A stretch of 64,000 bases of DNA from a virus: IMG/VR virus record IMGVR_UViG_3300044683_000172, positions 1 through 64,000 of that record; one strand, given 5' to 3'. A program made the position numbers and the translations under genes. Under the pieces are notes generated by a model. The model made no database searches. It was not told the origin of the DNA and was given only the letters and a program-made list of their open reading frames with translations. Shown in pieces: positions 3,766 through 47,358 of the stretch; position 1 is the first letter of the stretch; each line of letters starts with the position of its first letter.

Positions 3766-6300
3766 TTATCCTTGATTATTGGATTCACCGTCCGCCATGT
3801 GCGGATTAACATCAGATTCTCGCCAGAATTCGTTTGTGTATGGGCCGCAGTGAGCTTTCTTTGAGTTCAACCAAGCCTTGAAGTCGTCCATCGACAACTC
3901 ATGAATGGAATCAAATCCGTCCCAACCTTCCGAGTAGGATTGGTCATATGCTTCTTTTGCTTCTTCGCGGCTGTCGAACCCGAGCATGCACTTGTGCTCG
4001 TCAAACTCGCCGTCTTTGCTGTTTTGATTGACGATGAACGCCTTTTGGGACTTCATGTTGGGTCCGACAAAGCAATCCATCTCATCGCCATCGGCGCCTT
4101 CGAATCCCTTGATGAAGCCATAGTGGTGCGGCATATTCACGCTCCACTCATCACCGTCCAGGGTGACGCCGCGACGAGTTGTCCCGCGCGGATTTTCGAT
4201 TGCCAGCGTCATGCCGTGAAGCTTGATCTTTGGAAGCTTCCAAGGCGCTTGCTCGGTCGCCACGGACAACGGCCCATGCGTCGATGCTCGGACGGACGAT
4301 GCGACGCCCGGCTTAACCGCGCGGTCTCGGCCGGGGACTTCGCCCGCTCGAATGTCCACACCTTCCGGACGAATCTCATCACTCAGACGCTCAATAACGT
4401 CCGTCATCCGACCCAGGATGTCCATGATTGCAGGCGATACGCCAGCAGCGGCCGGATCAAGCATCGTAGTTTGTTCTTGTTGTGCGCGCTTTTGTGCGGG
4501 CTCTTGGACTTCCGGAACGGCCGCGACCTTTGGAGGGACCTCGGTGGCCTCTGCGCTTTCGTTTGCGCCCATTCCAATCTTGCTGCCCTTGTTGACTTCT
4601 TCCTGGCGCGCACCTGCCGTCACGAGGGATGCCTTCGACTTCTCCTGTTGCGCGCCGGCCTTCTCCAACTCTGCCAGAACATCCGGCGACATGCCCGGCT
4701 CCGAATTCCCATCGTCGTTGCCCAGTCGGTTGTATCCGCTGTACTTGTCGTCCCGAATTCGATTGCGCTCCTCGTCCGGAGACAGCGCGCCGGATTCGAC
4801 CAAGGCAACGCCGGTTTGAGCCTTCGTCAAGTTCAGCTCAGCGCGTTGCTTGGCCGTCATCGAGTCAACAGGCTCCCAAACGTGCTGGATTTTCACCGTC
4901 AGCCCAAGCGACTTCTCCAGCAGCATGTAGTGCCGATCAAGGAGCGGCGACATGTCGTGCTTTTGAATCGATTCAAGTTCTTCGTGATAGTTGATCGTCT
5001 CAAACTCACCAGTAGAATTGAATCCCTTCGGGGACGTTCCCAGAAGCTTCGTTGCAGGAACCTTGCCAATCGCGGATACCAGCTGATACTGGTTCATGAT
5101 GACGGCGTCGAAGTCGGCCAGAGACGTGTCGAATTGCTCCATCGTCTCTTCTTTTCCCAAGACCTTCACTGCGTGATTGTCTCGGTACTTGACCCAGAAC
5201 TTGAGCTTGGCAATGAACTTGTCTTCGTTCAGAATTGCCTTTTCGGTATCGACGTGGATTGCCGTCGTTCGTTTGTTCGTAGCAAGCAGCGGCGCCTCAT
5301 TTGCCGTACGTTCGGCGGCATAGACGCGCTCATAGATGCGCTGGGTCAGCGGGATGCCGCCGAAAATGTACGTCGGCTTCAGAATGTCTGCCGGTTCCGG
5401 ACCGCGAACGATGATGAGGTGGCTTCGGTGATATTTCTTCCCGCTGATGATCCAGTATTCCGGTTCATAGAAGTGGATGGAGGAAGGATCGGCCGTTGCT
5501 TCAGCCGTCAGCATCGGCATCATCCAATACGGATCAACCTGTGAAATGCCCTTGTAGGAGCCCTTAGTAACGCCATCGATGTTGAATGGCTTCTCGTAAT
5601 AACGTTCATCGTCACTTTCCACCTCAAAGATGGCGACGCGGATGCCGAAGATGTTCTTGAATCGAACCAACTGTTTCAGGTTTTCCACCAACCTGAACTT
5701 GAGATCATAGCGCTCCAGCTCATCACGGGTTGCATCGTCCAACTCTTCATCTTCGCTGACCGCCTTGAGTGTCCAGCCGTTCCTCACGGCATCTTCCCCG
5801 GGCATAGAGCACGCCTTGTCCACAAGCCAATGCTGTGCGATAAGAGCGCACGCCTGATATCCGATGAACGACTGGGAAAGATACCAGTTCATCAGCTGCT
5901 CAGGGACTGCATACGGAGTTTGCATTGTTCCGGCCATGCTGGGATCGCACGTGCCGCAGGAATCATCCATTGCGTAAGTCTTCGCAATGGGCACGGCAGA
6001 GTCCATGACCAGGGAAGTGCCTGAGATCGTCTCCACTTTTGAATGGCTCTCATCTTCCAACTCGGCCATGGGGAATGAATCGACCCCTCGCAGAGTGAGG
6101 ATTCGCTCGCCGTCGGTTACGGTCCAACCTTCTTGGCGCCTGACGCGCTCCATCGGGTCCAACGGATCGGTGATCGGGACAAATTCCTGTTTGGCCTCGG
6201 GCGCGCGAGCCTTTCTTTTGCGACCAAACAGTCCGGTGATCTTATTGAGCATGGTGGATTCCGATGGGTGTACGCGCTCAGCCCGTAAGTTCACAGGCAT
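3766..6300 (-). CDS. portal protein with C-terminal inorganic-pyrophosphatase-like domain
   Basis: 844-aa ORF. The first ~530 aa sit in the usual portal position (after terminase, before MuF) and have portal-like size and composition. An acidic/Ala-rich linker follows. The last ~160 aa carry YGFI...DGDEMD...DGEFDEHK, which resembles the family I PPase signature (YGxI, DGDxxD, D..DxK). Confidence 0.7.
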   Translation of the reverse strand: MPVNLRAERVHPSESTMLNKITGLFGRKRKARAPEAKQEFVPITDPLDPMERVRRQEGWTVTDGERILTLRGVDSFPMAELEDESHSKVETISGTSLVMDSAVPIAKTYAMDDSCGTCDPSMAGTMQTPYAVPEQLMNWYLSQSFIGYQACALIAQHWLVDKACSMPGEDAVRNGWTLKAVSEDEELDDATRDELERYDLKFRLVENLKQLVRFKNIFGIRVAIFEVESDDERYYEKPFNIDGVTKGSYKGISQVDPYWMMPMLTAEATADPSSIHFYEPEYWIISGKKYHRSHLIIVRGPEPADILKPTYIFGGIPLTQRIYERVYAAERTANEAPLLATNKRTTAIHVDTEKAILNEDKFIAKLKFWVKYRDNHAVKVLGKEETMEQFDTSLADFDAVIMNQYQLVSAIGKVPATKLLGTSPKGFNSTGEFETINYHEELESIQKHDMSPLLDRHYMLLEKSLGLTVKIQHVWEPVDSMTAKQRAELNLTKAQTGVALVESGALSPDEERNRIRDDKYSGYNRLGNDDGNSEPGMSPDVLAELEKAGAQQEKSKASLVTAGARQEEVNKGSKIGMGANESAEATEVPPKVAAVPEVQEPAQKRAQQEQTTMLDPAAAGVSPAIMDILGRMTDVIERLSDEIRPEGVDIRAGEVPGRDRAVKPGVASSVRASTHGPLSVATEQAPWKLPKIKLHGMTLAIENPRGTTRRGVTLDGDEWSVNMPHHYGFIKGFEGADGDEMDCFVGPNMKSQKAFIVNQNSKDGEFDEHKCMLGFDSREEAKEAYDQSYSEGWDGFDSIHELSMDDFKAWLNSKKAHCGPYTNEFWRESDVNPHMADGESNNQG

Positions 6301-12807: not shown

Positions 12808-13016
12808 TCGAAGACCTGCAATTCAGCATGTTTCTGAACGTCGTCGAAGACACGCTGAAGCGCAATCGTTGCAAGGCCGATTTGAACGCTCTTGAGATCG
12901 GCCTTGCTCGAAAGGCGTACGCCAATGGTGAACCCGCATATATTGCGGCTTCGGTTATCGTCTCATATCGCCTTCACGAATTCCGTAAGATGCCTACATC
13001 GCCAACCATTCACTAG
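12804..13016 (+). CDS. hypothetical protein
   Basis: ATG overlaps the upstream stop (ATGA). Confidence 0.4.
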   Translation: MIEDLQFSMFLNVVEDTLKRNRCKADLNALEIGLARKAYANGEPAYIAASVIVSYRLHEFRKMPTSPTIH

Positions 13017-13582: not shown

Positions 13583-13914
13583 CCTTTTACTACACAGGAC
13601 GCGATCCTGTGGCAGACCTGCTCAAGATGTTCGAAGGGACGACGAAAGTTCAGGATGTCGTCGCCATCGGATGGCTGGATTTGACAGGTCGCCAGATCGG
13701 ATACGGCCGCGCTCAGCAGATTCTCAGTCTTCTGAACAAGAACATGGGCATCAACTCGTCCGGACCGATGGAAGCGACGGCAATCGACAGCCTACGGACC
13801 ATCGGGAACCAGATCGGCCACCAAAAGGCGCAGCGAATCCTGCAACTGCTGTGGGCGGACTATCTCAGAAAATGCGGCCATCCAATGGAAGGCGCGTTGA
13901 GTGGAGACCTTTGA
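13579..13914 (+). CDS. hypothetical protein
   Basis: Start overlaps the previous stop (ATGA). Confidence 0.45.
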   Translation: MTFYYTGRDPVADLLKMFEGTTKVQDVVAIGWLDLTGRQIGYGRAQQILSLLNKNMGINSSGPMEATAIDSLRTIGNQIGHQKAQRILQLLWADYLRKCGHPMEGALSGDL

Positions 13915-14016
13915 CACGTCCAACTCCTTCGCAAAATGATCATCCGCATCCTGGCAGCATCCGTTATCCTTGCTTTCTTCCTCTTTTGCTCGCCAATCTT
14001 GGCGTAAGGAGTCGTC

Positions 14017-14229
14017 TTGAAAATCTTTCTCAAGTTGGCGTTGATTCTCGCCATGGTGATGCTGATCTCCTTCATGTTGGGAGTCGTCTCGCCGATCCTT
14101 ATCAACTCCGATTCGTGGATCGGCATTGCCGTGCTGCCATTCGTGTGGTTGGCCGTAATCGGCGCCAACATCGTCGTGATCAAGCTTACTTTCTTCTCAA
14201 CCCTCCAACAACAAAAGGAGAACAAATGA
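14017..14229 (+). CDS. small two-TM membrane protein (possible NfeD-like partner of the SPFH protein)
   Basis: 70 aa, two hydrophobic helices. Overlaps the start of the SPFH gene. Confidence 0.5.
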   Translation: MKIFLKLALILAMVMLISFMLGVVSPILINSDSWIGIAVLPFVWLAVIGANIVVIKLTFFSTLQQQKENK

Positions 14230-15050
14230 AACGATTCCGTTCGCTCATCCTCGCGGCCTTCATCGGCTGCATGTCGCTTCTCGCTGGCTGCGACAACGTT
14301 CCGGCAGGCCACGTCGGCATCCAGGTCTCGCGCTACGGCGGCGACCGAGGCGTCAACATCGACGTGAAACAGCCGGGCCGATATTTCAACGGCTGGAACG
14401 TGGACATGTTCCTGTTCCCCACGTTCACCCAATCGCATGTCTGGGACAAGGCCGGTTCCGATGAATCGTTCACGTTCCAAACGGTCGAAGGCCTGAGCGT
14501 CAACACCGATGTCGGGATCAGCTATACCATCGCGCCCGAGAATGCTGCGAAGGTCTTCCAGAAATATCGGCGAGGTGTCGATGAGATCACGGCCGTGTAC
14601 CTTCGTGCCATGGTCCGCGATACGCTCAACCTTGCCGGCGCCCGTATGGCAATCGAAGACGTGTACGGCAAGGGCAAAGCTGATCTTCAGAAGAGCGTGG
14701 AAGACGACGTGAAGAAGCAAGCCGCGAGCGTCGGCATCACGGTCGAATCCGTGTACTTCGTGAATGAGATGCGATTGCCGCCTTCCGTCGTGAACTCGAT
14801 CAACGCGAAGATCGCCGCGACGCAAGTTGCCCAGCAGAAGGAAAACGAGCTACGCGCAGCCGAGGCGGATGCGGCCAAGGCGATTGCCCAGGCCAAGGGC
14901 GAAGCCGAAGCGACACGAATCCGTGGCGAGGCGCTACGATCCAGCCCGCAGGCGCTCCAGCAGTTGGCAATCGAGCGCTGGGACGGCAAGTTGCCTCAGT
15001 ACATCGGCGCCGGTCAGCCGGTCCCGTTTGTCGGCGCGACGGTGAAGTGA
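14226..15050 (+). CDS. SPFH/band-7 (stomatin/prohibitin-like) lipoprotein
   Basis: N-terminal MKRFRSLILAAFIGCMSLLAGC (signal plus lipobox), then SPFH-like core and a C-terminal Ala/Glu-rich coiled coil (AQQKENELRAAEADAAKAIAQAKGEAEA). RBS aaaaggagaacaaATG. The longer 13671 start in the ORF track overlaps upstream genes and is rejected. Confidence 0.65.
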   Translation: MKRFRSLILAAFIGCMSLLAGCDNVPAGHVGIQVSRYGGDRGVNIDVKQPGRYFNGWNVDMFLFPTFTQSHVWDKAGSDESFTFQTVEGLSVNTDVGISYTIAPENAAKVFQKYRRGVDEITAVYLRAMVRDTLNLAGARMAIEDVYGKGKADLQKSVEDDVKKQAASVGITVESVYFVNEMRLPPSVVNSINAKIAATQVAQQKENELRAAEADAAKAIAQAKGEAEATRIRGEALRSSPQALQQLAIERWDGKLPQYIGAGQPVPFVGATVK

Positions 15051-16842: not shown

Positions 16843-16954
16843 CACAAATGACCATGCACTACACACGAATTCGCGGCGACTACTTCTGCAAACGTTGCGG
16901 CTATCTCAATCCTGCGTTTCTGAACGCGTGCTGGGTTTGCGGAACGAAGTCCTG

Positions 16955-17146
16955 ATGCCGTACATCTTCATCACAAGCCGCGATCCGCGCAGCGGCCGTA
17001 CTAACATCAAGTTTGTCCATCGTCGTCGCGCAGGCGCTTTGGGCCGTGGACCAGACACTGTCCTTCGTGAAGCAATTGGATTGACTGAACCTCAGTTGAT
17101 TCAGTTTCGCGATAAGATCAAGCGGGACTTTTCTTTGAAGGAGTGA
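16955..17146 (+). CDS. hypothetical protein
   Basis: Internal ATG chosen to avoid a long overlap. Confidence 0.35.
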   Translation: MPYIFITSRDPRSGRTNIKFVHRRRAGALGRGPDTVLREAIGLTEPQLIQFRDKIKRDFSLKE

Positions 17147-17149
17147 TCC

Positions 17150-17425
17150 ATGAACAACTGGATGATCGTTCTGCCGAATCCCAATGGCAATCACTCGGCC
17201 GCATTTGGCTCGACGCGCGAAGAGGCAGCCGCGAATCTCGTCGATCTCTATAAACGGAACAGGCGCGTTCTGGCCTCTGAGATCGCAGTGAATGGGCAAT
17301 ATCTCGGCGTCGAAGTCTTTCGAATCTCGGATGATCCATGCATCGAGAGCGTCATCACCAGCGGCGTGCGCGAAAACCTGTTTGATATCATGAAGACGAT
17401 CAATGGAACATCAAGCCTCAAGTGA
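17150..17425 (+). CDS. hypothetical protein
   Basis: RBS aaggagtgatccATG. Confidence 0.45.
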   Translation: MNNWMIVLPNPNGNHSAAFGSTREEAAANLVDLYKRNRRVLASEIAVNGQYLGVEVFRISDDPCIESVITSGVRENLFDIMKTINGTSSLK

Positions 17426-17675
17426 CGCTCTTCGTGAGCGCATCGACGAGTTTAACAGGAATCTCGTCCCAAAGATGATGCAGTCATTCATCCGCGAAAC
17501 ACGTCTTATGAAGAAGCCGAGCATTCGTCGTGTTCAGCTCAAACAGGGTAAGGATGCAGGCAAGTGGATCTGGGGCGCAAAGATCAGTGTTATTCACACG
17601 CCTGTGGAATTGGAACGGGCGGCGCTGGCCTTTTGCGATGAACTCAACCGGAAGGAATCCCAACATGGAACCTGA
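17403..17675 (+). CDS. hypothetical protein
   Basis: 90-aa ORF. Confidence 0.4.
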   Translation: MEHQASSDALRERIDEFNRNLVPKMMQSFIRETRLMKKPSIRRVQLKQGKDAGKWIWGAKISVIHTPVELERAALAFCDELNRKESQHGT

Positions 17676-18072
17676 AATGAAGTTCATGATTCTGGCACTT
17701 CTGGTGTCGCTCTTGGTATTCTGCATCGCGCTTGTGCGTTGGTGGATCGTGGTTGGAAGGAAGCCACCCAAGGCCGGCACTTACTGGCCAATGCCGCCTG
17801 TTCCTCCAGCGAATTTGCGGCGCCCTAACGCGAACTACAAGCGCGCCATAGCAGCGGCTGATGCCAGGAATAAGCCGGTCATTTCCAAGATTGAAACAAT
17901 AGGTATGTTTCCTGAAAGTCATATTTGGGCAGTAGTATATCCAATGTTGTACGATCACCTTCGAAATGCAGATGAGGCTAAAGCGTGCGAACATCATGCT
18001 CGAAGACTCAATCTAAAATCCCGAATCGAGAAAAGGAGCCAAAATGAAAGTCATCGCAAAATACAACAATGA
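17665..18072 (+). CDS. single-TM membrane protein
   Basis: MEPEMKFMILALLVSLLVFCIALVRWWIV hydrophobic helix. Confidence 0.45.
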   Translation: MEPEMKFMILALLVSLLVFCIALVRWWIVVGRKPPKAGTYWPMPPVPPANLRRPNANYKRAIAAADARNKPVISKIETIGMFPESHIWAVVYPMLYDHLRNADEAKACEHHARRLNLKSRIEKRSQNESHRKIQQ

Positions 18073-18406
18073 GTTCAGACCGTTCGAATTGATGATTCGA
18101 GTCGAGCACCAAACTGAACTGGAAGCGCTTTTCCAGCTGTCTCGATTGGTGACTTCTGTTCCGGAGACGGTCATTCGCCAGATGGAGCAGATGCACAGCA
18201 ATCCGCAGCTGAATGCAAGCTTGAGTTCCATCGAGAGCGATCTCCGCGCAGCGCTCAATGATGTTCTGGGCGCGCTTTCGCCGATTCGGAGTTCGCTCGT
18301 TGGTGCTACCGTCGCTGCTTACCAGAACGAGCCCAAGATCAGGTCCAGCAATGGCGACGACAAACTCACAACCGCCGAGGCAAAAGGGCTCAGCAGTCAC
18401 GGTTAA
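18044..18406 (+). CDS. hypothetical protein
   Basis: RBS aaaaggagccaaaATG. Confidence 0.45.
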   Translation: MKVIAKYNNEFRPFELMIRVEHQTELEALFQLSRLVTSVPETVIRQMEQMHSNPQLNASLSSIESDLRAALNDVLGALSPIRSSLVGATVAAYQNEPKIRSSNGDDKLTTAEAKGLSSHG

Positions 18407-18419
18407 CAAGGAGAAGAAC

Positions 18420-18782
18420 ATGGAATACATGGCAAAACGCAAGCCGGAAGAGTTCCGGCCCATCGATGTGACGTTCCGCATCCAGTCGCAAGCGGAGTTG
18501 GACAACTTACAGCGATTCCTAGCGTTTGATGGTACGGTGCCGTCCGCTGTGCGCGAATACGATGTGACGACTGGGGATGATGCTGCTCTGCGCATCCACA
18601 ATAAACGGCACGGCGGACGGCATTCGTCTGACTACGCCGTCTTCGAATACGATGATGATCTGGCTGGGTTCGTTTTTCGATTCATGGGCGGTCTGCGCAA
18701 TGCAGTGGTGGGTGCATTGGTCGATGATTGCGAACAGAACGGAGCGAGTGCCCAAATCGACGGTGCCGGCTTGCTGAAGTGA
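18420..18782 (+). CDS. hypothetical protein
   Basis: RBS aaggagaagaacATG. Confidence 0.45.
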   Translation: MEYMAKRKPEEFRPIDVTFRIQSQAELDNLQRFLAFDGTVPSAVREYDVTTGDDAALRIHNKRHGGRHSSDYAVFEYDDDLAGFVFRFMGGLRNAVVGALVDDCEQNGASAQIDGAGLLK

Positions 18783-18899
18783 ACGTTGATTCGTTCATCT
18801 GCGCCAACTAAGATTCGTCCTGTGCTGCGTTGATACCGGAGTTTGCCGCGCGACGGCTTTGAAGGTGAACCAAACGGCACGGCGCTTGTAGACCGCTTA

Positions 18900-19610
18900 A
18901 AGTCTACAGCCATTTATGGGCGAGTCCTTTATTGGACATCACTTGGAGACATCTAAGTGCCCATAAATGGCGGTCCCGGAAAAACGTATAGTCTGCTGCG
19001 TAGGCGTGCGCTGGTGGACGGCAGTACGGCCGTACGGGATCGCCAACCAGTTCCCAGCGTGGAGCGAACGATAACAGACCGAAAGGCGTCTATGCGCTTC
19101 TGGCGCGGTCTCAAGTCTGGTGCGCTTCATAGGCGAGGGTAGCGATGGCAGGCCGCGAGATAGTCTCCCCGTTTGGCGTCTTACGCACTTTGTGAGTGGC
19201 GCCCTTCGGTGTTCGTCTTTGAGGCGCCTTGCAGTGGCGTAACCCATTCCTCAAGGATGAACACCGAAGTCCTGTACGTCTCAGTGGTAGAGCGCGGTGC
19301 GGTATCCAATCCGTGCTGTGTGTCGTCGGTTCGATTCCGATCATGGACTTCAGCAAGCATATTCCGCTCAATCCCAGAACATCGACGGCGTGCGAGCAGG
19401 TGGCCTAGTCAGCCGCCACAACTGTTTCTCGCGGAAGCGCGTCTAAGGGGTTTGAACTACCGGACGCGGCAGAGAATCGACATGGGAAACCGCCTGAACC
19501 TGTCGGACAAGCCGGTACGTCCCGAGTGGCCGCGGTGAACGGTCAAGCAGCCGGTGAACTCACCCGAAGCCCGCGACACGTTGTGAAACGCTCGCGGGCT
19601 TCGTCATTTC
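18900..19610 (+). other. candidate structured non-coding RNA, tRNA-like element or replication/recombination site within a ~1 kb ORF-free region
   Basis: No credible ORF. 13-bp perfect inverted repeat gccatttatgggc / gcccataaatggc (18909-18921 and 18959-18971). Long-range complement cttcggtgttc / gaacaccgaag (19204-19214 and 19259-19269). tRNA-like D-loop and T-loop strings tctcagtggtagagcgc and gtcggttcgattccgat (19279-19340). GC hairpin gaagcccgcg...cgcgggcttc followed by a T-rich tract at about 19565-19610. Confidence 0.3.
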
Positions 19611-19854
19611 TACGCCAGAAACAATCCCATCGTGAGGCGAGCGTATCGACCAAGAAAATGGCGTTCAAATTCGCGTAATACCCATTACGTTAAATTGCCG
19701 TTCGCTTATCGCACGCCAGAATAGCCTCATTGTTTGAGGTTGCGAAACAATCTCTCATCTCACTTCGGCCCTCAACCATTTGGATGAGTTGCCAATGTGC
19801 ATCTCGTCAGGCATGATTGAGTCACCTAAACGAATCTCATACGGAGATACCGAA

Positions 19855-20370
19855 ATGCGCTACTTCAAGATCGACGGCCACTTCAACGTTGTTGCAATCG
19901 CCGAGTCGATGGACGAAGTCAAGGCCGATCTGGACAACGGCGGCCAATGGGCATTCAGCTGGCAAGGTCAGAAGATGGAGATTCGCAATCTGAAGCCGGA
20001 AGGTGGATGGATGTGCCGTAACGACATCGAATCTTGGGAAGAAGCCCAGGCCATCGCAAGTGCGGCAAACGCCTTCTGCGGATCGCCGGATGCCTGGATT
20101 GCCACCGACGCCGGTGAATGGGTCAGCCCGCGCTACGATGTGATCGAAGCGCCTAAAGTCGGTCAGTTCGTCTCGAAGGGCTTCAATGGCGATTACTACC
20201 CGCTGGGCACGATTACGAAGATCAGCCACGACTTCAAGCGCGTTACGGTCGAAAATGAGAACGGCACCAAATACGTCTTCTATCGCAAGAAGATGAGCGG
20301 TGTTTGGTTGCTGAATCGTATGTGGGGACTGGTATGCGGTAGCGTCAACGAGCGCAACCCGCATCTCTAA
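19855..20370 (+). CDS. hypothetical protein
   Basis: 171-aa ORF, RBS acggagataccgaaATG. Followed by a strong terminator. Confidence 0.5.
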   Translation: MRYFKIDGHFNVVAIAESMDEVKADLDNGGQWAFSWQGQKMEIRNLKPEGGWMCRNDIESWEEAQAIASAANAFCGSPDAWIATDAGEWVSPRYDVIEAPKVGQFVSKGFNGDYYPLGTITKISHDFKRVTVENENGTKYVFYRKKMSGVWLLNRMWGLVCGSVNERNPHL

Positions 20371-20390
20371 TTTCTGACCGATTTAAACAA

Positions 20391-20428
20391 AACGCCCGGC
20401 TCCTGAGTGGAGTTCCGGGCGTTTTCAA
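20391..20428. terminator. rho-independent terminator (aacgcccgg...ccgggcgtt + T-run). Second hairpin taaggccga...tcggcctta at 20451-20490. Bidirectional pair between convergent genes
   Basis: Perfect 9-bp stems followed by TTTTC / TTTCTTTG. Confidence 0.6.
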
Positions 20429-20481
20429 TTTCGGTGTTCTAGCCAATCAATAAGGCCGACCTAGGCAACGGGTCATCGGCC

Positions 20482-21063
20482 TTATTTCTTTGTGTTCTTG
20501 GCACCATCGGACACATATTCGGGCGCGTCTTCGGTCGATTCCTCGTCGCCTTCCGCGATACCGGCAGCCTGCAACGCATCAGAACGGGCCGCTGCCGTCT
20601 CTTCGTCCATCTCAGGGATGGATTCATAGAATGCGTTGAGGTTCTTCACGGCACGTGTTTTTCCGTTCTCATCCACAAAAGTGATGTTAGCCAGAACATT
20701 CAACTCCTTGATAGCCGCGAGTTGAGTGGAGCACTTGACAAATGGATTGTGCACCATTTGCAGAAGCGAATTGATGGACTTCTTTTGGTTCCACAGCTTA
20801 TCCATCGGCATTTCTGCGAGTCGCTGTTGGAATGTGTTTTGGAACCACGGATTCTGCTCGATCTGCTCGGCGTACATCGAAACGTCTTCAGCACGGTAGC
20901 CAGGGCCAAATGCGCGTCGGAATGCGGTGTACGGCGTAAAGCCATCGATGCGATTCTTCACGTATGACTCATATTGAGGCAAGTTTGCGAGAGCCATACG
21001 CTCTTCAGCAAACATCCTCGGGTCATACGGATCGTGCTCGAATTCGCCTGTCGCTTTGCTCAT
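20482..21063 (-). CDS. hypothetical protein (candidate DNA-binding, iteron-binding or small terminase-like; unassigned)
   Basis: 193-aa ORF with acidic C-terminus, transcribed away from the CAACTAT repeat array. Confidence 0.45.
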   Translation of the reverse strand: MSKATGEFEHDPYDPRMFAEERMALANLPQYESYVKNRIDGFTPYTAFRRAFGPGYRAEDVSMYAEQIEQNPWFQNTFQQRLAEMPMDKLWNQKKSINSLLQMVHNPFVKCSTQLAAIKELNVLANITFVDENGKTRAVKNLNAFYESIPEMDEETAAARSDALQAAGIAEGDEESTEDAPEYVSDGAKNTKK

Positions 21064-21249
21064 GATTTTGGTGATGCCGCGTGTTCGGTTGATGCTCGCG
21101 ATTGTATGTGAACGTGTTCGTCAGAGATAGGAGGTGCTTTGGCTGTCTGTTTTGTGTTAGTTGGGATGCTGTGTACGTGCCGATTGTGGTAGTGCTTGGG
21201 TTTGCCGCCCGATAAATCAGAACCACTTGCCTTAATTGTCGGACGGTTT

Positions 21250-21500
21250 GCCGCGCCCAACTATTGGTCGTTCATTGCAACGCCGCGCGGGCATTGGGTT
21301 TGCCGCGAGTCTGTTTCTTCTTAGTTGTATTAATTGTAATAGTTGTATAAGAAAGAAATACGTATAGGCCCGTACATGTACGATCCCGTAAGAGTCTGAC
21401 GACCCACCCAATTATCCAACTTTCGCAACTATTGGACCTAAGTCCTTGATTCGAAAGAAGAAAGATAGTTGGGCGCGGCACAACTATTAGTTGCAACTAT
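21250..21500. repeat. iteron-like array: at least 7 direct and inverted copies of CAACTAT(T)(G/A)G plus a 14-bp inverted repeat ccgcgcccaactat / atagttgggcgcgg
   Basis: CAACTATTGG at 21257 and 21425. CAACTATT at 21480. CAACTAT at 21493. Inverted copies at about 21321, 21338 and 21464. Flanking 14-mers at 21250-21263 and 21464-21477 are reverse complements. Confidence 0.55.
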
Positions 21501-21587
21501 CTCGCGGCAAGTGTCCGCCACAACAATACATACCGCATCGCGAAACGCACAACAACCAAGAAAAGCGCCCGAAGGCGCATTCTTCAC

Positions 21588-23348
21588 TCAAAACCCGCCA
21601 TTGGCAGACGATTTATCATCCTCAGCGGCTTCACCCTTGGCATCAGAATAATCACCTTCCTCATCAGCATCACCAATCTTGGACAAAATCCCCTTGTGCG
21701 GGTCTTCAAATTCCTCAACCGACGACCAATCATAAAAGCGATAAATCTTTCGAGCACCAGTGCCGATCACCGATTTCGCCCCCAAAGAAGCGAAGAAAGA
21801 ATCAACGTGGGACGGAATTGCATCTCGCTTTGATATGGCCAAAAGTCTTTGGTGGAACTCAACAGGCTTAATATCGACCGCAAACCGACCATGATTTTCC
21901 TTGCGGCCGCGCCACAAGTGCTTCTGGCACTTCAACAATGCCGTCACACCATAGGTCGCCAGCATCGAATCTTCCACCGCGCCAGACCCTCGATCCATCT
22001 CGTTCTGAGAGAATTTTTGCACCTCATTCGCCACCTGTCCGACCTCGTGATCGAACGCAGCAACGCCATTTTCCTCAATCCAACGAGCGGCCTCGGCCAA
22101 GCACAGCCACATGTACTCTTCGAAGCGACGATCTTGCGAAACAATCATCTCGCATTGATAAGGCGCTGGCTTCCAAGTTTTCTTGCCGTTCTTATCCGGC
22201 AACTGGCCGCAAAACACAGGATAAAAACGTCGGTTGCCCGTGTCATCTCGCTGAAGCCCCTCATACTTATTACCGTCCATCAAGATGATCCAACGCCGCA
22301 GCATCGTCTGCGATCCTTCGAACTTGAAATCAAAGGTATCTGACGAGTTGGTAACGAACGCCTTGACTCGATTCAAGTCGGCGCGCGTAAAGCCTGTCAT
22401 TTCTGGAATTGCCGCGACTACGCTATTGCCGGTGATCGTTCGAAGAAAGTCGATTCGCCCACCGCTCAGGTCCAGCGGCGTGGGAAACATCTTCTCGTCA
22501 CCCATAATCTCGCGCGTGATTCGAGTTCCGAAATGCGACTTCCCGCAGTTCTGGGCGCCAAATAACGACAAGACGATCCCAGCATTGTGGCCGCCATACA
22601 TCACACGCACGTAAAGCGATGTCCAAAAGTACCATCCCATTCGGCGATTCAGCGGCGTATCGAAGCACTCGAACAAATCCATCATGGACGTTTCGAGACG
22701 ATTCTTGCCGTCCCACTCCGGCAGCAACTTCGATAAACGCTCCTTCAATGGGTCGCGCCGAACGCTAAGCGCCCATTCAGCGAACGCATTTCGAACCGTC
22801 TCAGCGTTCTGTCCAAGCAAGTTCAATTCGCCCATCGCTTGGACTAAAGGCTCAATCGAATATTGCTTGTTGATTGTTTCGCCGTTCTCGTCGTTTCGAT
22901 AGCCGGTGAACTCATTATAGAAAGGTCGATGAGGCGAATCCTTATCCTCACCGAACAATAGCTCAAACGCTTTCCACCGATTGCGGTCGCTGGACATGTT
23001 TATCGTCGTCGGCTTTCCAGCGACGATCTTTTCGGTGTACTCTGGGAACTCGTTCAACCCGCTTTGTCGAATGGCTTTGGCGCGGGCAACCAAGTCCGGA
23101 ATCTCACGGATTTCAGCGAGACGACGTTTTGCTTCATCGCTGGAACGAGCCAACGTAATAACATTTAGCCGCGCTGCGTGTCGCGCTTTTTCTTCTCCGT
23201 CGGCGTCGGCGATTGAATCTGGCGCATCTGTCCAATCATCCGGCGAACTTCTTTCACCATCAGCCAGATCGCTTGGCTCCCAAGGCAGATCAGGAGTATC
23301 GTCACCAGGACTGTCAGGAATGTTGTCATTTTGCTTCTTCTTGGTCAT
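21588..23348 (-). CDS. primase-associated P-loop NTPase / helicase, VirE / D5-like family
   Basis: Walker A FGAQNCGKSHFG. 586 aa. Long acidic N-terminus. Adjacent to a primase-polymerase-like gene and iterons. Confidence 0.7.
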   Translation of the reverse strand: MTKKKQNDNIPDSPGDDTPDLPWEPSDLADGERSSPDDWTDAPDSIADADGEEKARHAARLNVITLARSSDEAKRRLAEIREIPDLVARAKAIRQSGLNEFPEYTEKIVAGKPTTINMSSDRNRWKAFELLFGEDKDSPHRPFYNEFTGYRNDENGETINKQYSIEPLVQAMGELNLLGQNAETVRNAFAEWALSVRRDPLKERLSKLLPEWDGKNRLETSMMDLFECFDTPLNRRMGWYFWTSLYVRVMYGGHNAGIVLSLFGAQNCGKSHFGTRITREIMGDEKMFPTPLDLSGGRIDFLRTITGNSVVAAIPEMTGFTRADLNRVKAFVTNSSDTFDFKFEGSQTMLRRWIILMDGNKYEGLQRDDTGNRRFYPVFCGQLPDKNGKKTWKPAPYQCEMIVSQDRRFEEYMWLCLAEAARWIEENGVAAFDHEVGQVANEVQKFSQNEMDRGSGAVEDSMLATYGVTALLKCQKHLWRGRKENHGRFAVDIKPVEFHQRLLAISKRDAIPSHVDSFFASLGAKSVIGTGARKIYRFYDWSSVEEFEDPHKGILSKIGDADEEGDYSDAKGEAAEDDKSSANGGF

Positions 23349-23375
23349 TGCGATACCTGCTAAGTGATTCGATTA

Positions 23376-23879
23376 TCAAACTTTCGACATGAAGGCGACG
23401 TATTCCACCACCTCATTGGTCAGTTGATCGAAATCACGGAGCAGATGCCCTTTACTGCCAGCGCCCGATTCCAAGACGCTCCGGCGTTGGGCTGCGGCTT
23501 CTCGGTAGAGTTCCGCTTCAATCTTCTCGCGGAAGTACTGAGGATGGGCGCGAAGGATTCCTACTGTGCAAAGATAAGTCAAGCAAGCGAGCGCGACCAT
23601 TGCCTTGAGTTCCTTCGGAAGCTTCACTTTGGGCATCGCGACGCCATTCAGGCCCGTTCCCATGTCGCCCGATCCGTCGAACAGGATGCACACCAGCAAC
23701 TTCGCTCGATATTCATCGGCGAATTCGATGGTGATGTGTGAGATGTTGACGCCGGAATTCCTGCCGACGTGCACGCGTATGGATCCTGCGATTTTGTCCG
23801 GATCGAATGAGAAATTCGGATCGAGATCAGCGCCTGTGGCGATGCGGAATAGTTGGCCATACAATACAGCTGCATTCAT
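23376..23879 (-). CDS. hypothetical protein
   Basis: 167-aa ORF between the primase-like and helicase-like genes. Confidence 0.45.
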   Translation of the reverse strand: MNAAVLYGQLFRIATGADLDPNFSFDPDKIAGSIRVHVGRNSGVNISHITIEFADEYRAKLLVCILFDGSGDMGTGLNGVAMPKVKLPKELKAMVALACLTYLCTVGILRAHPQYFREKIEAELYREAAAQRRSVLESGAGSKGHLLRDFDQLTNEVVEYVAFMSKV

Positions 23880-23903
23880 TGCTTATTCTCCTTGTGAGAA
23901 TGG

Positions 23904-25007
23904 TTATGGTTTGATGAATGGCGGAACGCCGCGTGATGCGTAAAACTCATTGATCTTTTTCAAGTCATCCTCCACGACTGGCAAGACAATCTCGTCCACG
24001 AAGTGGCCCCAAGTCTTCTTGTTGGTCTTCCGGTGGACATCGTGCGCGCAGCCGAAGACGAATTCGATTTCTGCGCCAGGGATGGGACCTCGGAAGTAAG
24101 CGCCGCTCGGATCGCCGTTTCCGTGCTCGTGACCCCAGGGACAAATGATGCGGACCTTCCCAGAACCGTTCTCGCGCACTTCGCCGCCGTTCTCGCCCAT
24201 AGATGCACCAGACAGAATCTTCACCGCCATGTTGTATTGAACTTTCTCGGCGATGTACGAATCCTCGTCGATTGCTCGTTGGACGATGGGCGGAACTGTG
24301 AACGAAAATCCGAACGCGCGGCAGATGCGGTCGATGCTGTAGCGTCGTTCGTAGTCGTGGTCCCGCAACGTAACGCTCCAGGGCTTTCCTGTGTGTTCGT
24401 CCGGGTACTTCAGCGCCGCGCCCGGCTCCGACGATACGCGCTTATTGTTGAAGCCGATGGGCATGCGGCCGAAGCGGCTCACGTCCTTAATCGTGTTGTC
24501 GCCGCCCGCTTTCAGGACGCTGTTGACGAAGGCTTGTAAGAAGTATTTGAACCGGCGCATATCGGGCTCGGGCGCATCGAGAAAGTACCAAGCCTGATAG
24601 TTGCGCGGCGAAGTCTCCACGACTGCGGTGGGAACCAATCTTTCATAGAGCCATCGAAGGCTGAGGCCGCCTTTGGAGCCTTTGCCGTCTCCGATGTCGT
24701 CCACCATGAGCGCCATGCCGTGGCCGAAGGACGATTCGCCGCGCCAGTAGCGCATGACGCCGGATTTGGGGTGAGGGGTTTTAATGCTGGATGAGATGCA
24801 AACGTATGCGTTCGCATTCACATTGATGTACTTGCCGGGCTTGTAGGGTACGGGCCACCATCCGGCGTGCTTAACTTGGCCATTTTCGTCGCGTTGCAGC
24901 GTTGCTTCTTCTGCGTAACCGACCATGACCCGTTCATCTTCTGGAATTCCTCTTTGCAATTGAGTCAGGAATTCCTCTGCGATGTTATATCGCTCTTTCG
25001 GTGTCAT
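23904..25007 (-). CDS. putative primase-polymerase (PrimPol-like) with C-terminal Cys/His zinc cluster
   Basis: MALMVDDIGDG (DxD-type metal site) and VETSPRNYQAWYF motifs resembling archaeo-eukaryotic primase-polymerase domains. C-terminal CPWGHEH...CAHDVH. Confidence 0.5.
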   Translation of the reverse strand: MTPKERYNIAEEFLTQLQRGIPEDERVMVGYAEEATLQRDENGQVKHAGWWPVPYKPGKYINVNANAYVCISSSIKTPHPKSGVMRYWRGESSFGHGMALMVDDIGDGKGSKGGLSLRWLYERLVPTAVVETSPRNYQAWYFLDAPEPDMRRFKYFLQAFVNSVLKAGGDNTIKDVSRFGRMPIGFNNKRVSSEPGAALKYPDEHTGKPWSVTLRDHDYERRYSIDRICRAFGFSFTVPPIVQRAIDEDSYIAEKVQYNMAVKILSGASMGENGGEVRENGSGKVRIICPWGHEHGNGDPSGAYFRGPIPGAEIEFVFGCAHDVHRKTNKKTWGHFVDEIVLPVVEDDLKKINEFYASRGVPPFIKP

Positions 25008-26872: not shown

Positions 26873-27010
26873 ATGATCAAAAGAAATGGCACATCGATCA
26901 TCTTTGCTTTCTTCGCGCTGATGTCGATCTTTGGTGGTGAAAAGGGCGCTGCGCTCGCATTCTTCTTCTTTTGCGGATTGACTTTGGATTTGAAGAGAGG
27001 GTGTGAGTGA
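26873..27010 (+). CDS. small membrane peptide
   Basis: 45 aa, hydrophobic (IIFAFFALMSIFGG). Confidence 0.3.
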   Translation: MIKRNGTSIIFAFFALMSIFGGEKGAALAFFFFCGLTLDLKRGCE

Positions 27011-27027
27011 AACGAGAAGAGAATGAA

Positions 27028-27852
27028 ATGTTGGACCAAATCAAATTCACTTCCGAGCACGAATTGCCTGTGCAATCCCTAAAGAGATCAGGGATTTACC
27101 GCATCGTATCGCCAAGCGGAAATTTCTATGTAGGAAGTGCTGTTGAAATTCGAAAACGATGGCGCAATCACAAGCGTCAACTTATCTCTGGCGTTCACCA
27201 CAACAAACCGCTGCAAGCTGCTGCCAAAAAGTACGGTTTGGAAAGCCTGCGATTCGAGATCATCGAGCACTGCGATTCTGATGTGCTCATTAACAGGGAA
27301 CAGTTTTACATCGACGCGCTGCGCCCTAAGTACAACACGTGTTTGGTGGCCGGAAGCCCACGCGGCGTGAAGCGTTCCGAAGAGACGAAGGCGAAGGTGC
27401 GCGCCGCGAATGTCGGCAGGAAGCACTCCGAAGAGACGAAGGCAAAACTGAGTGCCGCGAAGATCGGTAAGAGGCTTTCTGAGGACCACAAAGCGAAGTT
27501 GAGCGCGGCACGAATCGGCAAGATCGGCAAGAAGCATTCCGAAGAGACAAAGGCGAAGATGAGTGCGGCACACACCGGTAAGAAGTTTTCTGAGGAGCAC
27601 AAGGCGAAGATGAGCGCCGCGAATATCGGCAAGAAGCATTCCGAAGAGGCAAAGGCAAAAATGAGCGCGACACGAACCGGTAAGAGGCTTTCTGAGGAGC
27701 ACAAGGCAAATATGAGCGCCGCGCTTACCGGCAGGAAGCTTTCTGAGGAGCACAAGGCGAAGCTGCGCGCAGCGCGTCTGGCCTATTTGTCAAGGCGCAA
27801 CGGCGAGATTGGCACTTCGCTCGGATTTTCTTTCCCTGCTGATTCACTTTGA
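27028..27852 (+). CDS. GIY-YIG homing endonuclease with about 10 tandem NUMOD3-like repeats
   Basis: GIYRIVSPSGNFYVGSAVEIRKRWRNH...E catalytic module, then repeated SEE(T/H)KAK(M/L)SAA..GKKHS units (repetitive also at the DNA level, 27360-27780). Confidence 0.8.
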   Translation: MLDQIKFTSEHELPVQSLKRSGIYRIVSPSGNFYVGSAVEIRKRWRNHKRQLISGVHHNKPLQAAAKKYGLESLRFEIIEHCDSDVLINREQFYIDALRPKYNTCLVAGSPRGVKRSEETKAKVRAANVGRKHSEETKAKLSAAKIGKRLSEDHKAKLSAARIGKIGKKHSEETKAKMSAAHTGKKFSEEHKAKMSAANIGKKHSEEAKAKMSATRTGKRLSEEHKANMSAALTGRKLSEEHKAKLRAARLAYLSRRNGEIGTSLGFSFPADSL

Positions 27853-27891: not shown

Positions 27892-29040
27892 ATGACCGAC
27901 ATCCATTTCGAGCAATTCAACCCCCAACAAAAACGTGCCGTGGAATTGGCCGTCAGTTGGTACAAAGGCTGGGCTGACCGCAGCCATCGCAAGCAAATCT
28001 TTCGCCTCGGCGGTTATGCGGGCACTGGCAAAACGACCGTCGCACGAGTGATCGCTGAGTTGTGCGGCGGACAGCGCAAGGTCGTGTTCATTGCGCCGAC
28101 CGGAAAGGCCGCGAGTCGCCTGCGCCAAAAGGGTTGTGCCTACGCAAAGACCATGCACAGTTTCATCTACAACGTGCGCGGCGAAGACGAAGAAGGCGAA
28201 CCCATATTCAGCGCAAAAGGCGCGTTGGATGAGCGCCCGGTGCTTGTGATCATGGACGAGGCATCGATGGTCGGCGAGTATGACCGAAAGAACTTGCTGA
28301 TGCACGGCATCCCAATCCTGGAAATCGGCGACCCTGGCCAAATTCCACCGGTGAAAGACAAGCAAGTATTCACGCTCGATTCGCTGGACTTCGTTCTGGA
28401 AGACATCGAGCGCAACGCCGGCAATATCGTCAAGGCATCCATGTTTATTCGCCAAGGCAAGCGCCTTCCTGTCCGCGAGTATGACGATGCGCGCGTTCGC
28501 GAAGGGAAGCCGGACGATGCGACGATGCGCGAACATCTGGGCGAGGATGCCGTAATTCTGTGCGCATTCAACTCCAGCCGCGAGTGGATGAACGAACGGG
28601 CGCGACGACTGCTTGGCTTCTCCGGAGACATCCCGCAAGTTGGCGAGAAGGTTGTATGCACCTTCAACCAGCACGGCTATGGCTGGATGAACGGAGAACA
28701 GGGAATCATCATCAATTACTATGACATTCCTGACGAAGAGAAGGACGACGAAAACGAAGACTGCATGTTTGCAACGATCAAGTCCCTGACGGACGGAAAA
28801 GAGCGTCGCATCATGTTTAATCCGCTTTCGTTCTCGCCGGACGGCGAACAGAAGAAAGCCGCACAGCGCTCGATTGGCGGCGTGGACTACGGCTACTGCC
28901 TCACTGTCCACAAGTCGCAGGGGAGTGAGTGGCCGCGCGTGATGATTATCGAAGAAACATTGCGCGGTGTCCCATACGAGCAAATGATGTATACTGCTGT
29001 GACGCGCGCCATCGACCAATTCACGCTGTACCGACAATAG
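27892..29040 (+). CDS. Dda/RecD-like superfamily 1 DNA helicase
   Basis: Walker A GGYAGTGKTT, VLVIMDEASMV, and the RecD-family motif TVHKSQGSEW. Confidence 0.8.
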   Translation: MTDIHFEQFNPQQKRAVELAVSWYKGWADRSHRKQIFRLGGYAGTGKTTVARVIAELCGGQRKVVFIAPTGKAASRLRQKGCAYAKTMHSFIYNVRGEDEEGEPIFSAKGALDERPVLVIMDEASMVGEYDRKNLLMHGIPILEIGDPGQIPPVKDKQVFTLDSLDFVLEDIERNAGNIVKASMFIRQGKRLPVREYDDARVREGKPDDATMREHLGEDAVILCAFNSSREWMNERARRLLGFSGDIPQVGEKVVCTFNQHGYGWMNGEQGIIINYYDIPDEEKDDENEDCMFATIKSLTDGKERRIMFNPLSFSPDGEQKKAAQRSIGGVDYGYCLTVHKSQGSEWPRVMIIEETLRGVPYEQMMYTAVTRAIDQFTLYRQ

Positions 29041-31889: not shown

Positions 31890-32716
31890 AAGTCACCCTC
31901 ATATCCCACACCCAAAACGCTCTGGAGCTTCTGGTTGATACGAAGCACACGCGTATGCGCGGCAAGACGGCCGATCAGATGACTGAAGCCGAACGATATG
32001 AGCACTTCCAGTACATGCTTGATACGATCCGCTCGCCGTTCGAGTTCGTTGATTACATCTTCCAGATCGAAGGCGTGTCCAAGAACTTCACGCATCAACT
32101 GGTTCGCACACGTACGGGCGCGTATCAGCAGGAAACCAGTCGCGCGCTGGAAATATCGGCCTTCGATACGATCAAGCCGAAGGCATTCGATGGAAACGGA
32201 CAGATAGATACGCCCTTGAATGAAGTTTGGGCGGACGCAATCGCCGATGCAGACGCCAACTACAAACAGTTGATTGCAATGGGCGCCGACCTTCAAGACG
32301 CCCGCGCCATCCTTCCGTCCAACATGGCCACCAAGATCATGGCCAAGTTTAATCTCCGGACGCTTTCTGATATGGCCAAGAACCGCCTGTGCGCACGTAC
32401 ACAAGGTGAGTATCAGGAAGTCTTTCGGGCAATGCGCGCGGCGGTGTTGGAAGTTCATCCCTGGTCCGACCCGCTCTTGCAGGTGGCGTGCGTTGCGACA
32501 GGGCAATGCGCCTTTCCGCGTTGGGGATCGAAGGTTATCGAGACGACGGCAAACGTACTGGGCCGCGATACCGTCATCGGTCAGAAGTATCAGTGTCCGC
32601 ACTATCGGCCTTGGATGGACCTGTCCGCTCAGAAGGAAGCATTGCGCGTATCCTTCTGGTCCAAGGAAGAAATCGCGCAAGCCAACCCCGTCGCCAAGAA
32701 TGGCGTTTCCATGTAA
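31886..32716 (+). CDS. ThyX-family (flavin-dependent thymidylate synthase-like) enzyme with divergent signature (RTR..G....S.R instead of RHR..S....S.R)
   Basis: HQLVRTRTGAYQQETSRA aligns to the ThyX RHRxxSxxxxSxR motif. The second block NLRTLSDMAKNRLCARTQGEYQEV aligns to the ThyX dUMP-binding NxRxLxxxxxxRxxxxAQxEI block. Confidence 0.7.
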   Translation: MKVTLISHTQNALELLVDTKHTRMRGKTADQMTEAERYEHFQYMLDTIRSPFEFVDYIFQIEGVSKNFTHQLVRTRTGAYQQETSRALEISAFDTIKPKAFDGNGQIDTPLNEVWADAIADADANYKQLIAMGADLQDARAILPSNMATKIMAKFNLRTLSDMAKNRLCARTQGEYQEVFRAMRAAVLEVHPWSDPLLQVACVATGQCAFPRWGSKVIETTANVLGRDTVIGQKYQCPHYRPWMDLSAQKEALRVSFWSKEEIAQANPVAKNGVSM

Positions 32717-32724
32717 GGAACTTC

Positions 32725-47329: not shown

Positions 47330-47358
47330 AAAGGGCTCCAATCGGAGCCCTTTTCTTT
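47328..47358. terminator. bidirectional rho-independent terminator (aaaa gggctcc aatc ggagccc tttt)
   Basis: Perfect 7-bp stem flanked by A-run and T-run between convergent genes. Confidence 0.65.

Follow-up and report, generated by a model that had tools for sequence, protein, structure and literature searches.

The window analysed here, 64,000 nucleotides (nt) of the IMG/VR virus record IMGVR_UViG_3300044683_000172 (positions 1 to 64,000), covers nearly the whole genome, about 65 kb long and tightly packed, of a virulent PB1-like (Pbunavirus-related) myophage. Between an open reading frame (ORF) at 18420-18782 (+) and another at 19855-20370 (+) lies an island (18783-19854) that is non-coding and contains, mid-way along its first 830 nt or so, an element that is derived from a transfer RNA (tRNA) but is not itself a tRNA (19266-19352). 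The island sits in the block of early genes on the + strand, all called neighbours are on the same strand, and the block converges on replication genes of the - strand, which end at 20482. The phage is known from metagenomes, and the same proteins are also encoded on a 68.9-kb JGI contig. An independent assembly, the Logan contig from SRR23978801, is identical to the window over positions 16855-23370, hence the island is no assembly artefact. The features discussed below are collected in Table 1.

The absence of a protein gene is supported by several lines of analysis. All ORFs in the island are short and exhibit codon log-odds between -0.48 and 0.00, as compared with +0.26 and +0.45 per codon for the flanking genes, of which the downstream one, with the higher value, also matches PHROG 9742; between 18783 and 19800 none of the six frames yields a positive value. 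Comparison of the ORFs with PHROGs gave no significant match (best E 0.018), the sole HMMER match of the longest of them (121 aa) among 1.84 billion proteins was an artefactual one to a repeat protein, tblastx of the island had no match in related phages or elsewhere in the genome, and the Logan gene caller placed no gene there. These results exclude a hidden protein gene, in agreement with the initial annotation of this DNA, which had noted a stretch with no credible ORF in an otherwise tightly packed genome; by a crude greedy tiling of ORFs, the remaining gaps in the window are all about 300 nt or less.

Table 1. Positions of the features in and around the island, with phage tRNA genes from other contigs used for comparison.
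Feature	Position	Strand	Basis or description
Protein-free gap	18783-19854	+	Negative codon log-odds, no significant PHROG match, empty in Logan gene calls
12-nt stretch at the end of the upstream ORF	18769-18780	+	Perfectly complementary to 19347-19358 (3' acceptor strand and trailer)
Weak sigma-70-like promoter candidate	18786-18814	+	TTGATT-17 nt-TAAGAT, directly after the upstream stop codon
Branched RNA domain	18880-18980	+	Hairpin 18888-18893/18902-18907 and 13-bp helix 18909-18921/18959-18971; pair probabilities 0.94-1.00
Adjoining hairpin domain	18972-19041	+	Closing helix 18972-18978/19035-19041, pair probability 0.95; inner helices 0.83-0.91
21-bp hairpin	19204-19269	+	Helix 19204-19224/19249-19269 with two G-U pairs, inner 4-bp stem; pair probability 0.99
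tRNA-derived element (pseudo-tRNA or tRNA mimic)	19266-19352	+	D-loop and T-loop strings, drawn cloverleaf
Acceptor stem	19266-19274/19342-19351	+	9 bp, U19344 bulged
Positions 8 and 9	U19275, A19276	+	Drawn cloverleaf
D arm	19278-19293	+	4-bp stem, U19279 bulged
Anticodon-like arm	19295-19302/19311-19318	+	8-bp stem, 8-nt loop UAUCCAAU
Variable loop	19319-19324	+	6 nt
T arm	19325-19341	+	Canonical, directly stacked on the acceptor stem
Terminator-like hairpin	19565-19611	+	12 bp (19565-19576/19592-19603) and inner 4 bp, GUGA loop, then UCAUUUCU; pair probability 0.99
Regulatory leader of the next gene	19612-19854	+	Promoter-like site and ribosome-binding site; ordinary
Phage tRNA genes with long or odd anticodon arms (IMG/VR contigs)	L021 13808-13885; L023 1915-1996; L027 7568-7676		Canonical D and T arms, 31-37 nt between them

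To evaluate the folding strength of the island, 100-nt windows were taken across the whole 64 kb, their folding energies were corrected for GC content and about 3,200 of them were ranked, while z-scores of individual stretches were calculated against dinucleotide shuffles. The + strand window starting at 18881 ranks first of all, and those starting at 19181 and 19201 rank fourth and fifth. The segment 18880-18980 reaches z = -7.26 with a minimum free energy of -48.1 kcal/mol, the 21-bp hairpin together with the tRNA-like element (19204-19352) z = -5.84, and the stretch 19555-19615 z = -4.68 (-27.8 kcal/mol for these 61 nt, which contain the terminator-like hairpin). The perfect 13-bp inverted repeat reported initially is present and encloses two small hairpins (18924-27/18934-37 and 18941-47/18952-58), and the exact 11-nt complementarity between 19204-19214 and 19259-19269, also reported, turned out to be the core of the longer 21-bp helix, whose last four bases (GAAG, 19266-19269) are at the same time the first four of the tRNA-like acceptor stem. 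The description of the region as highly structured, on the other hand, is true of three or four strong modules and not of the whole kilobase: judging from the z-scores, the region is not uniformly structured, and unremarkable sequence such as 18985-19130 lies between the modules. The stability of these hairpins is exceptional and greater on the + strand, where the whole 838 nt reach z = -4.5, as against -2.4 on the - strand; local windows give -6.1 versus -1.9 and -5.2 versus -2.9, as would be expected if the helices that contain G-U pairs are helices of a + strand RNA. Within the 21-bp helix such G-U pairs are the sole exceptions to Watson-Crick pairing, and the 8-bp anticodon-like stem is fully paired; helices that intact are not what free decay would be expected to leave. 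The third most stable + strand window of the genome lies elsewhere, at 12821-12960, in or near a 161-nt gap of the early block.

The repeats could alternatively be read at the level of DNA, as binding sites in a replication origin, a recombination or attachment (att) site, or some other protein-binding region. The island does adjoin the replication module (primase and helicase genes, 20482-25007), and the repeat arms CCATTTATGG and CCATAAATGG, 51 bp apart, are themselves near-palindromic. However, the G-U pairs of the helices count as mismatches in DNA and on the opposite strand, the half-site motif is found at no other place in the genome, and an operator reading of CCATWWATGG was likewise rejected for lack of any other exact copy in the genome. 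As regards an origin or the recombination site suggested earlier, there are no iterons (only one trivial repeat of 8 nt in 2.5 copies), DnaA boxes occur at chance level in the window and not at all in the gap, and the GC content stays at 0.53-0.56, with no AT-rich stretch and no switch of skew at the region. An att remnant, which the initial annotation had proposed to check by comparison with host tRNA genes, finds no better support. The 22-mer running from the T loop to the 3' end is absent from 185,579 GTDB species genomes, JGI metagenomes contain no match to a degenerate pattern of 24 nt that covers this stretch, the phage carries a virulent gene set, and no integrase was detected among the approximately 47 window proteins that were scanned with PHROGs and/or Pfam (small ORFs being only partly included). 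Moreover, the element keeps a full D arm and is therefore not just a 3' fragment of a tRNA. Altogether, we regard a DNA-level explanation as very improbable.

The relationship of the element to tRNAs is evident from its loops. The canonical D-loop and T-loop strings noticed initially are genuine: the motif pair AGTGGTAGAGC-N34-GGTTCGATTCC is found once in the window and in none of 100 shuffles, and the segments AGTGGTA-GAGC and GTCGG-TTCGATT-CCGAT are identical to those of genuine tRNAs. The D stem and loop (14 nt, CTCAGTGGTAGAGC) and the variable loop with the T arm (20 nt, TGTCGTCGGTTCGATTCCGA) are each identical to the corresponding parts of tRNA-Gly(UCC) of Vibrio phage 1.186.O. All nucleotides that form the elbow are kept, namely A14, G18, G19 and A21 in the D loop and G53, T54, T55, C56, A58 and C61 in the T loop. 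The 20-nt segment, however, does not point to a particular parent tRNA or host, because it is common to more than 120 bacterial tRNAs of five isotypes (Thr, Gly, Phe, Ala, His) from many phyla. Compared with the Vibrio phage tRNA-Gly, the element has four additional nucleotides on the 5' side, eight in the anticodon arm and three at the junction of the T arm and the acceptor. Two readings of the anticodon loop are possible, UCC (Gly) with A at the position of U33 and CCA (Trp) with one extra 5' base. From these likenesses the element appears to descend from an ordinary class I tRNA; the closest one found is the phage tRNA-Gly(UCC), and derivation from a tRNA-Trp(CCA) may also be read from the loop.

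The arms of the element, nevertheless, depart from the geometry of canonical tRNAs, with their 7-bp acceptor stem, 2-nt linker, 4-bp D stem, 5-bp anticodon stem, 7-nt loop with U33, and an end that carries CCA or to which CCA can be added. Initially no standard cloverleaf could be folded; in fact one can be drawn, provided that two single-base bulges are admitted. The acceptor-like pairing of gaagtcc with ggacttc is real over 7 bp, only its position had been given one base off and should read 19266-19272/19345-19351. The linker has 3 nt, the D stem is bulged and no CCA is encoded; the tail reads U-UCA or A-GCA, and in the canonical register the acceptor is followed by U-UCA, one change from U-CCA. 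The energy of the cloverleaf (-27.8 kcal/mol) lies 5.3 kcal/mol above the minimum (-33.1), a gap similar to that of the genuine phage tRNA-Gly, whose cloverleaf is 3.6 kcal/mol above its own minimum. The lengthened and bulged acceptor, the bulged D stem, the 8-bp anticodon stem, the 8-nt loop and the lack of CCA are incompatible with decoding.

Programs for the detection of tRNAs give the same verdict, and the initial view of a degenerate tRNA or a non-canonical tRNA-like RNA agrees with it. ARAGORN, recommended at the outset, called no gene in the window in its default, intron or tmRNA (transfer-messenger RNA) modes, and at 80% of its threshold it proposed only an implausible 'tRNA-Ile' fold with mismatched acceptor pairs. 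Among the models of the Rfam tRNA clan the best match is selenocysteine tRNA (tRNA-Sec) with 15.6 bits (E 0.8-8) against a cut-off of 47; the other matches in the clan scored lower, the cut-off of the tRNA model being 29. tRNA-Sec is characterized by an acceptor/T helix of 8+5 or 9+4 bp, a 6-bp D stem, a long variable arm and a UCA anticodon. The element was rejected as a tRNA-Sec, as it has neither the 6-bp D stem nor the long variable arm, nor UCA in the loop. A tmRNA would combine a tRNA-like domain with pseudoknots and a reading frame for a tag peptide. A tmRNA-like nature, one of the initial suggestions, was rejected too, given that the tmRNA mode of ARAGORN and all tmRNA models of Rfam (at E <= 10) were negative; the tools themselves were controlled with a permuted tmRNA, which they found in an unrelated locus. 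The latter gene, composed of two pieces, lies at 268-594 (-) beside a tRNA cluster in a 65.5-kb IMG/VR phage contig (L021). A permuted tRNA, also suggested, is contradicted by the normal order of the D, anticodon and T arms. Because it fails the cut-offs of both ARAGORN and Rfam, the element is tRNA-derived, yet not a tRNA, tRNA-Sec or tmRNA.

One may still ask if the element could be a working tRNA of a non-canonical kind, for instance a reader of four-base codons or a suppressor acting through the 8-nt anticodon loop. All four arms can be paired, UCC and CCA are both present in the loop, flanked by A, and odd tRNAs with enlarged anticodon regions do exist in phages: we found 26 IMG/VR loci of this kind, of which six were missed by ARAGORN (examples are given in Table 1). 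However, the two of these loci that were compared with the Rfam tRNA model score 35-37 bits, thereby passing the threshold, and are located in tRNA clusters, whereas the element at 19266-19352 remains below 16 bits and is solitary. In addition, an 8-bp anticodon stem and a bulged 9-bp acceptor would change the length of either arm of the L shape, CCA is not encoded, the Gly(UCC) reading has A at the invariant U33, and no sign of recoding was noticed in the phage genes, whose ORFs are ordinary under translation table 11. A functional decoding tRNA is thus highly unlikely.

Searches for relatives of the island revealed none, which makes it unique so far among the sequences compared. With blastn against phages and plasmids, including sub-stretches at relaxed E-values, the parts outside the element had no match, while the 95-nt tRNA-like stretch alone matched real phage tRNAs. 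Exact or degenerate patterns taken from four segments of the island had no match in IMG/VR, JGI metagenomes or GTDB genomes, a type of search in which diverged copies would be missed. In Rfam, no family reached its gathering score in the whole window, and three relaxed scans of the region gave matches at chance level only (E 0.5-8, 12-16 bits); in particular, no model of GOLLD, ROOL, group I or II introns, RNase P, 6S RNA or riboswitches matched. The family scan advised in the initial annotation thus yielded nothing beyond chance. The closest phages in a collection of 5.8 billion proteins are 51-62% identical in the 171-aa and 193-aa proteins encoded near the island, and these two genes are all that the early region shares with them. 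The same collection holds no relative of the 120-aa protein encoded directly upstream (18420-18782), which is an ORFan. The island belongs to known kinds of sequence, tRNA-derived elements and phage non-coding RNA, and to no known family.

At its downstream side the structured part ends on the + strand with a terminator-like hairpin, as the initial annotation had proposed in speaking of the region's own terminator. The 10-bp GC hairpin described there exists and is longer (12 bp with an inner 4 bp), but the T tract is weak. On the - strand the sequence shows no U tract after the hairpin. With its loop of more than 8 nt, the hairpin escaped a simple terminator scan. We consider it plausible that 19565-19611 is a terminator, though not a textbook one. 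A textbook bidirectional intrinsic terminator is present elsewhere in the genome, at 47330-47356 (AAAAAGGGCTCC-AATC-GGAGCCCTTTTCTTT), and makes the most stable - strand window. Upstream of the hairpin, 19353-19560 has no special structure, and downstream of it the last 245 nt or so of the island are the promoter and ribosome-binding region of the gene 19855-20370, with a promoter-like TTGCCA-17 nt-CATGAT at 19789-19817 and GGAG at 19843-19846, 8 nt before the ATG at 19855. Two words tried as shared promoter or operator elements were rejected: GAAACAATC occurs at chance frequency only, and ACGCCAGAA is commoner than in any shuffle but scattered over coding regions, with no intergenic pattern. 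At the upstream side, the end of the preceding ORF can pair over 12 nt with the 3' acceptor strand and trailer of the element; by our estimate, chance alone would produce about 0.04 such pairs in 1.2 kb. This pairing appears in the minimum-free-energy fold of 18760-19365 (RNAfold) and is mutually exclusive with the acceptor stem. An origin of the 12-nt inverted repeat from a transposon or a miniature inverted-repeat transposable element was dismissed, as no target-site duplication and no other copy was seen.

What, then, is the island likely to be? It is probably either a module for RNA processing or stability or a decaying relic, and not a working tRNA, a tmRNA or an integration site. The interpretation we favour, with about an even chance of being right, is that it specifies, at the end of the early operon, a structured RNA peculiar to this lineage, which stops at the hairpin terminator and carries a tRNA-derived handle for processing or stability. 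The first 830 nt or so (18783 to about 19611) would most likely be made as RNA, either as a long 3' extension of the early transcript whose last ORF is 18420-18782 or from the weak promoter at 18786, and transcription would stop at the hairpin 19565-19611. This RNA is predicted to fold into three autonomous stable modules: the branched domain 18880-19041, the 21-bp hairpin 19204-19269 and, abutting it, the tRNA-derived element. The last of these, being tRNA-shaped, could serve as a handle for tRNA-processing enzymes, with RNase P acting on the 5' side and 3' trimming on the other; a cut by RNase P directly after the 21-bp hairpin would give the upstream RNA a 3' end protected by this hairpin, and the long helices may act as barriers to nucleases or as sites for RNase III. 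Owing to the pairing of 18769-18780 with 19347-19358, folding of the tRNA shape might depend on ribosomes clearing the upstream ORF. Transcription, processing and any benefit to the phage are inferred here. We favour the RNA for the strand-specific stability of the modules, the lengthened but fully paired stems, the untouched elbow and the cost of keeping 1 kb of junk.

A number of observations weigh against such an RNA. In about half of its 830 nt (18985-19130 and 19250-19550) folding is no stronger than in shuffled sequence, the former stretch alone having z +0.5 and windows in the latter z near 0. The tract UCAUUUCU after the hairpin, with 5 U in 8, is weak, and the promoter candidate agrees with the consensus at 8 of 12 positions, which is under the threshold of a standard scan. 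The putative substrate of RNase P has a bulged acceptor stem of 9 bp, and to force this stem at the expense of the long-range pairing costs 7.9 kcal/mol in the fold of 18760-19365. The contigs fetched for related phages carry tightly packed early genes, with no comparable gap, no nhmmer match and no tRNA; the initial annotation had held that lack of conservation in related phages would refute its proposal, and in this formal sense the relatives do lack the island. As no homologue has been found, neither conservation nor covariation can be shown. Finally, the several single-base insertions and deletions (indels) in the element are the pattern expected of a pseudogene.

The last point leads to the main competitor of the RNA, a functionless relic, in which a tRNA gene acquired together with neighbouring accessory genes decays by small indels and the hairpins are leftover terminators or palindromes. 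In comparison with a canonical tRNA, one nucleotide is missing from the 5' acceptor strand and single extra ones are found after position 9, in the D stem and in the loop, while UCA stands in the place of CCA. Rejection of the element by ARAGORN and Rfam, absence of the island from all fetched relatives and of any homologue, the unstructured half, and the fast turnover of the early region, in which only the 171-aa and 193-aa genes are common to relatives, would all be natural for a sequence in decay. Yet compact phage genomes seldom keep 1 kb of junk, and the other gaps here are far from that size, about 300 nt at most by the crude tiling. Besides, the 32 nt of the D loop and T arm have no substitution despite at least four indels elsewhere in the element, the anticodon stem is longer by three positions that are paired on both strands, which is not random loss, and the modules are the most stable + strand structures of the genome, their asymmetry between the strands being suggestive of RNA. 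With these arguments on both sides, a relic strikes us as unlikely, though a possibility to be reckoned with.

An intact elbow combined with disabled decoding features could also suggest a decoy or sponge, i.e. a tRNA mimic which acts outside translation by binding host proteins that recognize the elbow or the anticodon arm, such as anticodon nucleases of anti-phage defence or enzymes that modify or process tRNAs. Its location among early ORFan genes of the host-takeover type would suit this role, and the phage encodes a PNKP-like protein (with a Pfam match below the cut-off) and an ATP-dependent ligase. In phage T4, this pair of enzymes heals tRNA cut by nucleases. However, both proteins belong to general phage families (PHROGs) and are unlinked to the island, no homologous decoy is known, and the single-base bulges look accidental, hence a decoy seems quite improbable. 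A bolder version of the favoured RNA, which we consider improbable as well, is that the island is the first and so far only member of a new class of large phage RNA, with the tRNA-shaped module set between a 5' and a 3' domain as in GOLLD; the acceptor and anticodon arms would then be deliberately longer by 2-3 bp, with the elbow untouched, and the enlarged tRNA mimic would function as a translation-coupled processing switch or as a decoy for defence nucleases. Whether RNA or relic, the best annotation is a non-coding island with a pseudo-tRNA or tRNA-like element and a terminator, and not a tRNA, a tmRNA or an att site.

In terms of known systems, the element shares with canonical tRNAs (RF00005) the order of arms, the pairing of all four of them and the identical stretches of 14 and 20 nt, and it differs from them by the bulged acceptor and D stems, the 8-bp/8-nt anticodon arm, the missing CCA and the score below 16 bits in the Rfam clan; it is also solitary, in a phage group with no tRNA in any fetched region of a relative. 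Non-decoding tRNA-shaped modules that recruit RNase P and RNase Z and thereby define the ends of RNAs are exemplified by the mascRNA of MALAT1 and by the tRNA-like/microRNA transcripts of MHV68. There too, a tRNA-shaped module is placed within a longer transcript, as may be the case here, but these examples are eukaryotic or come from a virus of eukaryotes. We know of no tRNA-like processing handle in bacteria or phages, and none turned up in the literature searched. YrlA, a bacterial Y-RNA-like non-coding RNA and tRNA mimic, occurs also in some phages and likewise combines a tRNA-like D arm and T arm in an RNA that does not decode. Its T arm comes first, its two ends leave the fold on the side of the anticodon, and a Ro60 (Rsr) gene is its neighbour. 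Here, in contrast, the D arm comes before the T arm, Rfam gives no YrlA match, and no Ro-like protein was seen among the proteins scanned.

With respect to length, the island is reminiscent of GOLLD and ROOL, non-coding RNAs of phages and prophages of about 600-800 nt or more, which often lie beside tRNA islands and, in the case of GOLLD, sometimes contain tRNAs within a linker (PMC12286853). The likeness consists in a non-coding stretch of about 830 nt with a tRNA-like element mid-way, while the differences are the lack of an Rfam match even at E <= 10 with relaxed filters, a 3' part (19352-19560) that has no special stability, and the absence of a family of homologues showing an ornate conserved fold. 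Besides these large RNAs, a precedent for the favoured RNA is offered by ncRNA1 and ncRNA2 of the virulent Pseudomonas phage PAK_P3, which derive from 3' untranslated regions, have no start site of their own, are made by processing, measure 120-210 nt, have been detected experimentally and are conserved within the genus (PMC10914365). Common to both is a non-coding stretch that follows a gene, in a lytic phage whose host is Gram-negative, but the island is about four times longer, unique and known here from its sequence, and the consulted portion of that report mentions no tRNA-like module for the PAK_P3 RNAs.

A solitary tRNA-derived element, within the one long non-coding stretch of the genome, is unexpected here because no tRNA was found in the window or in the fetched regions of relatives and because the genome is tightly packed. 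Should the RNA indeed be transcribed and processed, a virus of bacteria would have its own version of the tRNA-like processing handles of eukaryotic long non-coding RNAs, and the few large phage RNAs that travel with tRNAs and have no known function would gain another example. If it is a relic, it records that this lineage acquired a tRNA for a time, a matter of local interest only. For the phage group the combination is unusual, but a single sequence without homologues cannot carry a stronger claim.

The gene set detected in the window with PHROGs and/or Pfam includes a portal fused to an inorganic pyrophosphatase (InPase) domain, a large terminase, a RepB-type primase, a VapE-type helicase-primase, a DNA polymerase, Dda-like and other helicases, a ligase, a thymidylate synthase, a tail sheath, baseplate proteins and an endolysin. 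Identity of the primase to its counterparts in Luteibacter phage Pluto and Pseudomonas PB1-like phages is about 60%. Among the genes near the island, the adjacent 120-aa ORFans 18044-18406 (+) and 18420-18782 (+) are distant paralogues (25% identity, E 2e-6), and ORF 17677-18072 (+), uncalled in the Logan contig, starts with a hydrophobic helix (MKFMILALLVSLLVFCIALV) and has a codon score of about 0; it may encode a small membrane protein that fills an apparent gap of 369 nt. A free-standing homing endonuclease gene of the GIY-YIG/NUMOD3 type (27007-27852, +) is located directly upstream of a complete gene for a Dda-like helicase (27892-29040, +). The PNKP-like protein is encoded at 32488-33858 (+) and matches PHROG 4889/415, with Pfam HAD_PNKP just under the cut-off; its true start is probably near residue 80, since the listed start overlaps the thymidylate synthase gene. 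The gene for the ATP-dependent ligase is found at 44745-45668 (+). The inorganic-pyrophosphatase-like domain fused to the portal (3766-6300, -), an SPFH/Band 7 protein from the early block (13671-15050, +) and a FabG-like reductase (34265-34984, +) look like accessory functions of this group of phages.

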